Below, piece by piece: positions 49,601 to 58,342 of a stretch of DNA of 64,000 nucleotides. The notes below the pieces were generated by a model. The model worked only from the letters and a program-made list of their open reading frames with translations. It searched no databases and was not told where the DNA came from. A program made the translations under genes and the position numbers. The DNA comes from a virus (lineage: Duplodnaviria; Caudoviricetes): positions 1-64,000 of IMG/VR virus record IMGVR_UViG_3300013383_000026; one strand, written 5' to 3'. Position 1 is the first letter of the stretch. The number at the start of each line of letters is the position of its first letter.

Positions 49601-52600
49601 CATTTATAGCCGCTTGGAAGTTATTCATGACTGCGCCAAATACTTCAAACTGGTTCTTACCAGCATAAGCCAATGCTATAGACTGCTGTTCAGAACTTGA
49701 CATATTATCCCAGTCGGATTTCAAATCCTTGAATATCTGGAATGTCGATTTCATATCTCCCGTGGTTTCATCCATTAGAGATAAAGATTTTGTTACGCCG
49801 CCAACTTTATATTCAATTTCTCCTGCATCATTGGCGGCCGAAGCAAAGTTGTTACCGATGGTTCTAAGCAATTAATTTCTCATATGTTTCCATATAAGTC
49901 AGACTATTTCTTCACCCTCAACATTACTTGTAGGGGCAACCCGTTTTGCTTTCGCTACTCTATAAAAGATAGTCGTTTGACACATCCCTATTCGGGACTT
50001 TGCGACCAAACACCCATTGCTACGATACTTAGGCTTTTGACCATATACCATCTCTATTGTTGTTTTACTTTCGTTACATTCATATTTGCATATTTCATCA
50101 AATATTGTAGTAATAGAGCTTTAGGGGTTACTGGTTTTAGGGTTGTGCTTAAATGCACATTACTGTACATTGGGGGCTATAATTCCATCGTAATTATTGT
50201 TACCCTCGTGCAACTTTTGTGGCTTGTCCGGTCATAATTTCCGTGCCTGCCGTAACTACATTTGTTATTAATAGAAGGTCGTTAATCTTCTATGAATTGT
50301 ATAATTTTTTCTTTATAAGTTTCGTCTTGTATATCTTTATAACTTATTCTTAATAACGGGATATTCCATTGTTTGCAATACTCGTTTTTTATAATATCGT
50401 GCTTTTGTGTGGCTTCAAAAGTTTTTTGAGCAACTTCATTGCTAATTTGATTAAAATTACATGGCTTAAAATGTCCCTCTCCATCAACCTCTATTAGCCC
50501 CTGATTTTTCTCTATCCAGAAATCAAAAGGCAAAGGGATGACATCTTTACATGAATTTATTCTATATTGATAAATATATCTTATATTATTATCATCTAAG
50601 AATTGCTTAACAATTCTTTCGTATCTTGAGCTACTTTTTGCACATTTATCACAAGTTATTTTGCCCTGATAAAAAGAAGAAATTGATGTTGTAAATATAT
50701 CGCCACATTGACATCGGCATTTTATACCTTGCCGCGTCCATTTTTTATCATCACAAAAATCAATAACCTCGGATTTTATACCTCTGGTTCGGGCATAAAG
50801 ATTAGCATTATAGATATAATTCTTTTTATTGGTTCTAACATCAAAAATAGCTATTTGACGGCCTGATTTTAGTTTATTATAAGAAATAAAACCCTTATAA
50901 CCATCCTTATCCTCGACCTCTAAATATTCATTTCTTAAAAAGAACTCTGGCTCATTTAGAACTGTATATCCTTTAGCTCTAAAAAATTCCAATGTCTCCT
51001 GTTTGTCTTTACGATGTGATTTTCCGCGATTTTTTATAGCACATTTATTACATTCAGAAACATATGTTAACGTTTGAAGATTATCCCACGTTTTATTAAA
51101 CACATTTCCACATTTACATCGCATAGTTATTAGGACTCGTTTGTGCTTTGATTTGGTTATTATTTCTATGCTTAATATTTCAGCATTGGGGTCTTTCTTC
51201 TTTATAAATGTTTCTATATTTTCTTTCCAAAAAGGATTGGATAGAGAAAAGAACCTTTTACTCGTAGACTTGCCTTGCTTATGCGTAATATCTACGACAC
51301 TACACCAACTCTTCAACCCATCTTTTTCACAACAAATATTTTGCTGAGTATTTATATATTCTTCTTCAGGTGTTAAAATATGATAGCCAAATTTATTCAA
51401 TCTTTCCTTAATTTCTTCATAACTTAATTTATCCAATTATACAACTCCTCATACCTTTCGTATAAGATTAGATTATATCTTACATTCTTTAATAGAATGT
51501 CAACCCATTTCCCCAAACTTTTGGGTATGCCACTAACGACAATGGACTTACTAATCGTTGAACCTTCATCTAGTATCTATAGATGCTTGGCTGCTGATTG
51601 CCCAATCCTTATCTTTGTCACCATACCAAGTTCATTGCGCTTGCCGTTATAATATTTCTATTATAATTTGGTAGATAAGGCTCTAAGGGGTTCCCAGTCA
51701 ATTAGGGTTGTTTTAATAGACCAAGTTTTAGCCTATGGTTTGTTCAAAATCATTGCCCAAAACGCCCATTGCAGAGCTGGTTTTAGACAGAGCCGTAGCA
51801 ACATCCGTAGACGAAACAGCAAAATTATTACTGACGGCATTGATACTATCTATAATGTGAATCGCGTCCTCAGCAGGAATATTGAACGCCTTCATTTGAG
51901 ATATTATAATCGCCGCACTATCACTTGCAGATATTGCATCATCAGCAACGTTCTGGTATAATGTTGCTACTTGTGCCAGAGTCGCGGAATCTTCATCATT
52001 GAATGAGTTTTTGCGAAATTCCAATAAATGTTCAGTAAGTTCGTTAAGCTTACCAGCAGCACTACCCGCATCTTATAGTTTCCTACAAGTTCAGACTATA
52101 TCTTTATCTATTAACAAATAGATATGGGGCGCTTCGATTTCACTTGAAACCTACAGATATTATTTCAATCTTAGTCGTTGAACCTTCCAATAACTCAATA
52201 TTGGCTTGGCTGCTGATTACCCAATTCTTACAATTATCACGCTTTGGTATGTAAGACTCTAAGGGTTTCCCAGCAATTCACCCCATTCATTATATATGTT
52301 GCCATATACTCAACCAAATTATTTAGTTGCTGCCTCAATCATTTCTGACTGATTAATTAAGGCCAAAAATAATGTTCATCAAAAAATTCACCATACTGCT
52401 CAAGCCCCTCTTCCTCATCAGTTTTTATTTGAGTCCCAGAAGAAGTATGCTTATTACTGTCATTTGTTTTGGGCTTTGTAACTAATGAATGTATAATACT
52501 TGCAAAAAATGTAATATACACAACCGGCACAATAATCACTACAACAATAATCACCATAAACATATAATCAACCTCCTTTGGTTGATTCGACTATAACACA

Positions 52601-55607: not shown

Positions 55608-58342
55608 TTAACCGACAGTAACAGTCGCATATGCAACTATATCGGCATAGCCGGTAAGCGTTGCAGAAATAACAGTATCTCCATCAGTAGCGCTCGCCGT
55701 AATCTCACCAGTACTAGCATCAACAGTCGCGGACGAACCAGACTGCACTGCAAAAGTAAGGTTGCTGTTGTCAATACGCGCAGAAGCGACAGAGCCGCCA
55801 TAAACCGCACGAACAATCAGAGTCTCCTTAGCGCCCTGAGCAAGCTCAATGTCTGCATTCTCAATGGCAAGAGCAACAACATCATCTTTCCAGTTCGCGC
55901 CAAAAATTTCCTCAGTTATAGTGCCGTAGTACGGGTCCTCCTCGCAACTATCGCCAGCTTCAACACCAAGGGCATTGCCAGTCAGAGAAACAGTGGCAGC
56001 AGAAGTTGCAGTTAAATTAAGGTCTTGATTCTAATATGTTCACATAAGTTCGCTACGCTTATGCAGTTCTCTTATGAACTTCTTATGCTTTCACATAAGT
56101 ACAGACTATATCTTCATCTTGTTTATTCATATCTATATACACAATGCTGTGATTATGAACCAAATAATCAACAGCTCTTTTTATAGTATCTTCATCGGGC
56201 AATTCATCATATTTATTGCCCTTAATTCTTAGTATCTTATATCCTTGTTTTAATACACACCCATTGCGCCGATTATCATATAACTCTCTCTTATTATGGT
56301 AATATGCACCGTCATATTCAACATCTATTAAAATATTATCCGCTTTTAACAAGCAGTCAAAATTAACTCTATCTAATGGATATGCAGGAATACAATTATC
56401 TTCGCCATATAATCTTGCCAATATGTCACATAACTTTCGTTCGGGCTTAGAAGTTGGAGCTGTGCCGTGCTCGTAAAAAGATTGCGTCACTTTTCGCATT
56501 ATCTCATCAGACTGCAATGCATGTTTAACGCCATATTTCTCAAGCATTGTTTGTTTGCCACGTTCCCTAACTTCTTTAGCTTGTAAAGTATATTCTACGC
56601 CGTACTTATCTAAACTTTTTTGCCTCTTTTTATCCTTAACAGCTTCTATTTGAGACATATTGTCCACGCCATAACGTTCCTGCATGGTAGATTTATGTTT
56701 ATGCCATTGGCATGAATCACAGGCCAGTAAACCAGTTTTTATGCTATGTAAATATAACTTATACATTAACTTATATGGCCCACCACAATAATCACAAATA
56801 CAATTCACCATTACATGACTTCCACTGGTTAAATCTTTAGCTTTAGCTTCAAACTCATCGCCCATTTTAGTAAAACGATAGCCTCTTTTGACATAATGAG
56901 ATTTTATCTTAGAATTCCATTTAACTAAAACAAGCTGATTTTCATCAAACATTTATTCACTTCTTCTTGGTTCAAATTTATAAAATAAACAAGAGCAGTA
57001 TTTTTCGACTACGCTAGTAGCCTACTCTCCCCTAAGGAGATAGTCGTTGGGGGTTCTCCATGTATATTATATTATATAGCTTAATATAAGTCAATAATAT
57101 ATTTAGGAGCTTCCTTGCTAAACACCCATTGTAAATAACACTTAGGACGTATATTATTATAAATATACGCTTTTATTTCACCATATGTCATCCCACGATT
57201 TTTTCTGCTTTCGCACCATTCAGCATATTGTTTCCAATTACTGTTTAGGTTGTGGGCTTTAGGGATTAAAAGCATTTAACACTGAATCTGCACCAATCAC
57301 TTGATACAGAGGGCAAATCACCCGTCCAGCTGGAAAGAGGGAATATCAGTAATCAGACGTCCATACTTACTTGCATTCGCAACATCCTTAGTATCACCAG
57401 AAAACAGGTCATTAAGAATAACAACATGAAGCGTCTTAGGCACATACTGAGTATTGATAGTAATGTGACGCGCATTCAGATTCTGATAGAAATACTTAAT
57501 GCAATAGCTGTCACCGGCCTGATAGTTAGGAATAGTAATCTTATTGCCAACAATATTTGCAATGGTCCAATAGTTATCAGAGGGTTTCTTATACCAACCA
57601 ATAATGGAGCCATTAAATGCAACAGCAGTATTAGTAAGCGTAATTACGCCACCAGTGCCAATCGTCTCGCCCTGAGCCGGGGACTCATAGACAGAAAGTC
57701 CACCCTGTTCAATATCAACACCAAGATTCGCTGCGACATATTCAAGCTTGAACATTGCGTCCGTGAGCGTAATTGCGAGATTGCTATCATGGAAATGCTT
57801 GCCAAACAGCGCATTACCGCTACCGCCACGAATCTCTTCATTGGCTATACTAAAATTAAAGGTGCTCTCAGTTAAGGTCTTTGCATAATTTTCACATAAG
57901 TTCGTTAGGCTTATGCCGTTTATTCGAGCAAAATAAACTGCTCATGCCTTCACATGAGATAAGACTATATGTTCTTCTTATTTGTTCATATAAGAAGTGG
58001 ATTTTTCAGGGCACTTGCCCCTACTCCCTCGCAAAGGGATAGTCGTTGAGCGTTTCCCTTATCTTTATAGACTTAGGGATTTCGTTGCTGAAGACCCATT
58101 GTATAGATACTTAGGATTTAACCATATATCCATCTTACAACTTTTTTCTACTTTCGTAACCATTCAGCTTGTCATTTCTAACTACTGTTTAGGTATGTAA
58201 GCTTTAGGGATTGCCAGCATTTAACCCAAAGTACACACTTTTCACAAAATGTGCATGGCCATTATTTTACCACACCTATAAGATTATTAGAATCGAAGAG
58301 GAGTGCGCGACCGACACCCGCCAGAAAATGATTCTGAGCCAT
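55608..58342 (-). CDS. Probable major tail (tube) protein with C-terminal Ig-like domain, split by 2 group I introns; exons 58270-58342, 57321-57883, 55608-56030 (352 aa spliced)
   Basis: RBS AGGAGG; MAQNHFLAGVGRALLF...LIGV|AKTLTESTF...FQLDG|NQDLNLTA...; exons total 1059 nt in frame; followed by a terminator; product inferred from position. Confidence 0.75.
56031..57320 (-). mobile_element. Group I intron, tail intron 2 (1290 nt) with endonuclease ORF in the P8 region; non-canonical 5' register
   Basis: P3 CAGTGTT/AATACTG; R CAACGACTATC; S GAAGATATAGTCT; P1 GGGU/GCCC; terminal G 56031. Confidence 0.87.
56083..56952 (-). CDS. Intron-encoded putative homing endonuclease (Vsr/DUF559-like)
   Basis: CDYCG, YGV repeats, DVEYDGAYYH, GYKILRIK; 3' end overlaps the intron S element. 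Confidence 0.8.
   Translation of the reverse strand: MFDENQLVLVKWNSKIKSHYVKRGYRFTKMGDEFEAKAKDLTSGSHVMVNCICDYCGGPYKLMYKLYLHSIKTGLLACDSCQWHKHKSTMQERYGVDNMSQIEAVKDKKRQKSLDKYGVEYTLQAKEVRERGKQTMLEKYGVKHALQSDEIMRKVTQSFYEHGTAPTSKPERKLCDILARLYGEDNCIPAYPLDRVNFDCLLKADNILIDVEYDGAYYHNKRELYDNRRNGCVLKQGYKILRIKGNKYDELPDEDTIKRAVDYLVHNHSIVYIDMNKQDEDIVCTYVKA
57884..58269 (-). mobile_element. Group I intron, tail intron 1 (386 nt, ORF-less; non-canonical 5' register)
   Basis: P AAATGCTGGCAATCCC; R CTCAACGACTATC; S AAGAACATATAGTCT; P1 GUGUGGU/GCCAUGC; terminal G 57884. Confidence 0.87.

Follow-up and report, generated by a model that had tools for sequence, protein, structure and literature searches.

The virion genes of an uncultured gut phage (Caudoviricetes; IMG/VR virus record IMGVR_UViG_3300013383_000026) contain several group I introns, three of which appear to be excised together with the U of the U.G wobble pair in helix P1, the nucleotide that the group I rule assigns to the end of the 5′ exon. 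The window considered here is the stretch of 64,000 nt from position 1 to position 64,000 of that record, part of a phage contig of 85,953 bases, and all features described in it lie on the minus strand. Within the window, the tail tube gene (58342-55608) is interrupted by two introns and the tape-measure protein (TMP) gene (53790-46608) by five. A script that joined the exons located all seven at the positions given by a previous reading of the sequence, made without database searches (the sequence-only reading), and agreed with it that TMP introns 1-4 are canonical and in frame, joining after the U and after the terminal G. The same reading reported that tail intron 1, tail intron 2 and TMP intron 5 are offset by one nucleotide, and this observation is confirmed. 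The best explanation is that the offset introns are functional self-splicing introns of subgroup IA2 that cut after the last G of the exon, which we regard as probable from the sequence evidence set out below.

The three offset introns can be delimited to the nucleotide. Tail intron 1 (57884..58269; 386 nt, IA2-like, without an open reading frame, ORF) separates tail tube exon 1 (58270..58342; YomU-like, PF27173), whose 3′ end is a G, from exon 2 (57321..57883), which ends in GGG; its first base is the wobble U, its guide G is at 58259 and its last G at 57884. Tail intron 2 (56031..57320; 1290 nt) runs from U57320 to G56031, has its guide G at 57314 and is followed by exon 3 (55608..56030). 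TMP intron 5 (49869..50202; 334 nt, no ORF), which belongs to a second core type, lies between the 56-nt exon 5 (50203..50258), also ending in GGG, and exon 6 (46608..49868); it starts with the wobble U, has its guide G at 50177 and terminates at G49869. In all three cases P1 with its U.G pair folds as had been described, and the canonical join runs immediately into the stop codons that had been named. The frame is recovered at all three sites either if the U stays with the intron or if one base is skipped at the 3′ site. The first solution produces a tape-measure protein without stops and a tube protein of 352 amino acids, 92% identical to an intron-less homolog of 353 amino acids. The second would imply a canonical 5′ cut and a 3′ site one base beyond the terminal G, and it would place V, Y and F at the three junctions. 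None of these residues was ever seen in the 120, 120 and 90 homologs compared: tail site 1 has A in 107 and G in 12 of 120 tube proteins, tail site 2 has N in 94 and S in 23 of 120, and the TMP intron 5 site has L in 90 of 90. Therefore U58269, U57320 and U50202 must leave with the introns, as had been proposed, and only then do the proteins match their intron-less relatives. A shift of the 3′ site, which would also require a terminal base other than G every time and would create a stop at locus L030 (loci are cited by L numbers), is refuted by these residues and extremely unlikely.

Alignment with close intron-less alleles, of about 90% DNA identity, fixes the junction codons, since these alleles read GUU GCA at the first tail site, GGC or GGU AAU at the second and GGU or GGA CUU at the TMP site; the codons support the join without U. 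Ahead of the cut, the intron-bearing alleles have GUG and GGG; these codons are uncommon here (27 of the 261 codons for glycine are GGG) and form pairs with the CC(C) guide. When other Gs close to the junctions were taken as the ends of the three introns, no canonical product came out in frame unless conserved residues were added or deleted. A sequencing error or dead introns might be suspected in a metagenome assembly of an uncultured phage, but a contig from another sample is identical across 8,122 nt, including the junctions of tail intron 2 and TMP intron 5, which shows that these are not an assembly slip; in addition, the ends of tail intron 1 are the same in L360 and TMP intron 5 starts in the same way in L362. 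With the junctions conserved in other phages, and the same offset recurring at some 15 sites as well as in cultured Enterococcus phages, the probability of error or decay is negligible, in line with the earlier argument. Another way to accommodate the extra base would be canonical splicing after the U followed by ribosomal +1 frameshifting. Two of the junctions would indeed read GGG-U beside or near a stop, but the contexts are widely different (GUG GUC, GGU UGC, CAG UUU, UGG GUC), relatives without any U exist, and the phage needs large amounts of its tube, capsid and tape-measure proteins. The ligated exon of a related element, BcISt1, lacks the U (PMC4227781), and we consider frameshifting very unlikely.

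The identity of these elements as group I introns is supported by an Rfam model and by core features. The Rfam model RF00028 matches six of the loci, tail intron 2 only through its 3′ part, and the scores of the offset introns (48.5 bits for tail intron 1, 36.1 for TMP intron 5 and 25.5 for the partial match of tail intron 2) are all below the gathering score of 50. The R and S words were found in all three, as were P7.1 and P7.2 hairpins and an extended P9, these being minimal in TMP intron 5. Their 3′ ends (AUG, UAG and UUG) fall a few bases past P9.2. The three depart from the group in two respects, as the last base of the 5′ exon is not the U of the U.G pair and the A-rich wobble receptor in the joining segment J5/4 is missing. 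A fourth predicted G|U intron splits the major capsid gene of the same phage, where the product has 364 residues, the length of its intron-less homolog, only when the U is removed. It has a total length of 1204 nt, with its 5′ U at genome position 64396, its last G at 63193 and its 3′ part (63193..64000) inside the window; it encodes an endonuclease ORF (63949-63290). Its P7 contains a compensated U-A for C-G change (GAUUA/UAAUC), a variant also present in TMP intron 4.

The sequence-only reading cited no previous description of such a cut, but one had been published. According to Tourasse et al. (2014; PMC4227781), group B (IS607) IStrons insert after GG, and their U.G and splice site are one pair apart. 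Reverse transcription PCR (RT-PCR) of BcISt1 recovered ligated exons without the U and a full-length circle that keeps it, and the CboIStron gives the same join in vitro in the absence of protein (10.1101/2023.11.20.567912). Among the explanations proposed earlier, cleavage 5′ of the wobble U is thus supported by an experimental precedent. Trimming of the U by a protein followed by religation, in favour of which nothing was found, is most unlikely, given that the related IStron makes the product protein-free, that the BcISt1 full-length circle begins with the U and that two of the three offset introns have no ORF. A search of phage and plasmid collections returned, as best matches of tail intron 2, the IS607 IStrons of phage c-st, Clostridium botulinum BKT015925 and Selenomonas, with 79-81% identity over about 290 aligned bases. 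In a tree built from an alignment from which J4/5 and J5/4 had been removed, both tail introns and the group B IStron ribozymes formed one clade with support of 100/99. The tail introns are thus best read, on this phylogeny, as members of the group B ribozyme lineage that are free of an insertion sequence (IS).

The tail introns share with the group B IStrons (BcISt1, SrISt1 and CbISt1-4/CboIStron) an IA2 core, P7.1 and P7.2, an exon ending in G, a U.G located one pair off and, for tail intron 2, the J5/4 sequence UGU (UCU in tail intron 1). An exon ending in G with the U.G one pair off, the trait that defines group B (where the end is GG or AG), is seen in all three offset introns. Unlike those IStrons, the tail introns have no TnpA or TnpB, no CGG (or CAG) end and no long AU-rich terminal inverted repeat, and they occupy fixed sites in virion genes. 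The cargo also differs: SrISt1 encodes a resolvase and TnpB, whereas tail intron 2 has an ORF that starts inside the P8 loop (56083..56952; 289 amino acids, phrog_12131) and resembles a homing endonuclease with DUF7487 and DUF559 domains; it is neither a transposase nor TnpB. The tail introns would thus work like group B IStron ribozymes without being IStrons themselves, and TMP intron 5 falls outside the IStron clade. The 2014 study also described one IS-free IA2 intron of the same sort from Turicibacter, proposed it as kin of the IStron ancestor and left the cause of the shift open (PMC4227781). This single case, inferred from sequence, resembles the phage introns, as far as its published description goes, in being IS-free at a site ending in GG; the phage set is larger, includes members with endonucleases and has A, C or U at position +1. 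Canonical phage IA2 introns (T4 td, Twort orf142; RF00028) have in common with the offset ones the core fold, the terminal G, the presence of several introns per virion gene and the endonuclease cargo, but in them the cut follows the U of U.G and the A-rich wobble receptor of J4/5-J5/4 is kept. The lariat-capping ribozyme GIR1 is likewise group I-like with a remodelled P4-P5 junction (PMC2219692); in contrast to the offset introns, which ligate exons, GIR1 catalyses branching and still uses a G.U pair.

A pattern derived from the tail-intron core matched 23 viral loci and 93 genomic ones. Among the insertion sites, about 15 distinct ones, located in tube, capsid, portal and other genes, need the U-less cut to be in frame. 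The last three bases of the exon pair with a C-first triplet located directly above P2, which is CCC in 75 of 88 loci; ahead of this guide triplet there is a G in 49, an A in 37 and a U in 2 of the 88, so that the pair at +1 is U.G, C.A, U-A or U.U. Some carriers are cultured, among them Enterococcus phage EF1TV (MK268686), whose tail-tube gene contains such an intron; intron-less relatives confirm the join. Three loci that looked like canonical joins were discarded on reading by hand: at L011 the open frame is fortuitous (intron-less alleles read ESTQ-FTYL), at L056 the true intron end lies further down, and at L032 an alternative G exists but L065 shows W|A. Some further occurrences were recorded. 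The tail tube genes of L152 and L217 have G|U introns at the DG-N site of tail intron 2, inserted one base earlier (GG|U) and with a CCA guide. Staphylococcus phage qdsa001 (L139, 2000-3800), a cultured Silviavirus, carries in its exonuclease gene a group B-like intron with TnpB only and no intron annotation. Many dispersed copies of group B-type ribozymes (L036-L125) occur in goat-rumen Desulfovibrionaceae metagenome-assembled genomes (MAGs), Pectinatus, Sarcina, Mitsuokella, Treponema and Prevotella; these taxa go beyond the 2014 list, although the binning of the MAGs may be wrong.

The core words that the sequence-only reading saw in common are present in all three offset introns, but the single sub-lineage that they suggested did not hold. 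TMP intron 5 has the core of the canonical TMP intron 2 (clade support 100/100), and the approximately unbiased (AU) test rejects its grouping with the tail introns (p = 0.0008). The phylogeny thus points to two lineages of offset introns, not one, between which the P5 region may have been exchanged. Introns of the second type are cut six bases above P2, irrespective of the pair at that place: U.G in L129 and TMP intron 2, G-C in TMP intron 5, L002, L033, L175, L211 and L372, C-G in L128 and L135, U-A in L127 and C.A in L147. The frames of L033, L175, L211, L127, L128, L129, L135, L372 and L448 were checked. The U.G beside the TMP intron 5 cut is incidental, because L002 has an A there at the same site. 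The splice site of this type would therefore be better called wobble-independent than shifted.

These observations suggest how the exon could be cut after a G. The exon G would be held in a Watson-Crick G-C pair and the ribozyme would cleave after it, leaving the U of the U.G as first base of the intron; the exon G would then attack after the normal terminal G, generating an in-frame mRNA. By analogy, the chemistry in this phage would be that of BcISt1 and CboIStron. As for the cause, an adenosine of J5/4, A207 in Tetrahymena and A83 in Twort, normally makes contact with the wobble G (PMC1891724; PMC2219692). J5/4 is CAA, AGA, UAA and CAA in the canonical TMP introns 1-4, whereas in the offset introns it is UCU (58094-58092, tail intron 1), UGU (57124-57122, tail intron 2) and UGU (50012-50010, TMP intron 5), and in the capsid intron UAU. 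In the Rfam alignment the UCU of tail intron 1 sits on the consensus uAA, and the three IStrons that were read (phage c-st, BKT015925 and Selenomonas) have UGU. We lean slightly towards the view that the equivalent of A207 has been replaced by U or C, that the wobble is consequently left unread and that the cut is set by the distance from P2, with a ruler of three pairs in the tail/IStron type and six bases in the TMP intron 5 type.

The association between J5/4 and the splice site was followed in the second type, where a last J5/4 base of A goes with U.G in 25 sequences and a last base of U or C with another pair in 26 of 27, as scored by script. For two loci, L236 and L481, the script was wrong and U.G was found when they were read by hand. 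A metagenome set fetched after the rule had been set agrees with it. The contrast holds at a single insertion site (RTG|SEM), at which exons end in GGU or in GGG or GGC with the frames checked. Controls with a normal J5/4 join after the U, including L271, whose P1 is the identical GGGU/GCCC. Several points count against this interpretation. The tree requires five trait changes, and the independent pairs, although 4 of 4 are as predicted, give p = 0.125. Core patterns served to collect the groups, and this favours the monophyly of each set. Terminase intron 1 of L352 (about 7300-7660, plus strand) has a normal UAA and seems to be cut after an A before the U.G, or to have a terminal A; in the tape-measure type-2 intron of L380, with J5/4 UGA, the frame suggests a cut after an A opposite a G; and U.G is kept with a non-A J5/4 at two sites (L129 and the L231 group). 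Finally, the automated classifiers of P1 and frame chose a wrong P1 or a wrong terminal G and were too noisy, so that many junctions were read by hand. The link predicted from these sequences is thus strong in counts and weak in independent events.

A different cause for the cut after G could be the local geometry of P1, in which the U.G is followed by a loop with no flanking pairs, as suggested by Tourasse et al. (2014), or some other tertiary contact, the change in J5/4 being then a passenger or a later decay. The U.G is unflanked in the three offset introns, the same was noted for group B IStrons (PMC4227781), and the exceptions L352 and L380 retain an A in J5/4. On the other hand, introns such as L158 and L165 join in frame after the U although their U.G is unflanked, the exons of L033, L175, L211 and L002 end in G with no U.G at all, and SrISt1 was an exception in the original paper (PMC4227781). 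We consider this explanation possible but rather doubtful, and the loss of the wobble-reading adenosine remains the preferred cause. A literature search in which most subscription journals were outside the coverage found no description of a link between J5/4 and the splice site; nor was a published description found of the second lineage or of the explanation based on J5/4 plus a ruler, which are thus presented as additions.

The remaining features of the region provide the context of these introns. The virion gene block is SPbeta-like, and in relatives the Pfam families YonB, YomX, YomW, YomU (tube) and YomN follow one another in the same order. Joint Genome Institute (JGI) metagenomes have yielded records of the phage contig and of one more, and pig-gut and other metagenomes are the source of close relatives. 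The TMP gene begins with exon 1 (53517..53790; 3′ end U, start codon not fixed), followed by the canonical introns 1 (53135..53516), 2 (52349..53045), 3 (52022..52324) and 4 (50259..51729); intron 2, with the U.G at the cut and the core type of TMP intron 5, serves as an internal control, and intron 4 contains an endonuclease ORF of 384 amino acids (51436-50282). Introns 2 and 3 are separated by a micro-exon of 24 nt (52325-52348, SEMIEAAT), also present in L033 and L175. An ORF of 68 amino acids with a hydrophobic N-terminus (52357-52563) takes the place of an endonuclease after the core of TMP intron 2, and an ORF of the same length was called there in related phages (L359-L363). Outside the window, at genome positions 78330-78470 approximately (minus strand), there is a further group I-like core that has R and S words and follows an endonuclease-like ORF.

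The offset after G is a rare habit already known from transposon-linked relatives, and little of the surprise is therefore left. There remains, for the question that the 2014 study did not settle, an answer that can be tested, namely a change of one base in the wobble receptor together with a ruler from P2, for which nature provides pairs of introns that share a site and differ only in J5/4 and the cut pair. The chances are about even that in group I ribozymes of gut phages the J5/4 adenosine that reads the wobble was lost several times, in two or more lineages, that their 5′ splice site is set by the distance from P2 with any pair, and that one lineage supplied the ribozyme of the IS607 IStrons, whose GG target needs such freedom. 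If true, annotators should not call such phage genes frameshifted, and these introns could provide ribozymes that need no junction U for trans-splicing or RNA circularisation. It would also show how ribozymes can abandon a rule that is nearly universal and would point to the phage pool that gave the IS607 IStrons their intron.

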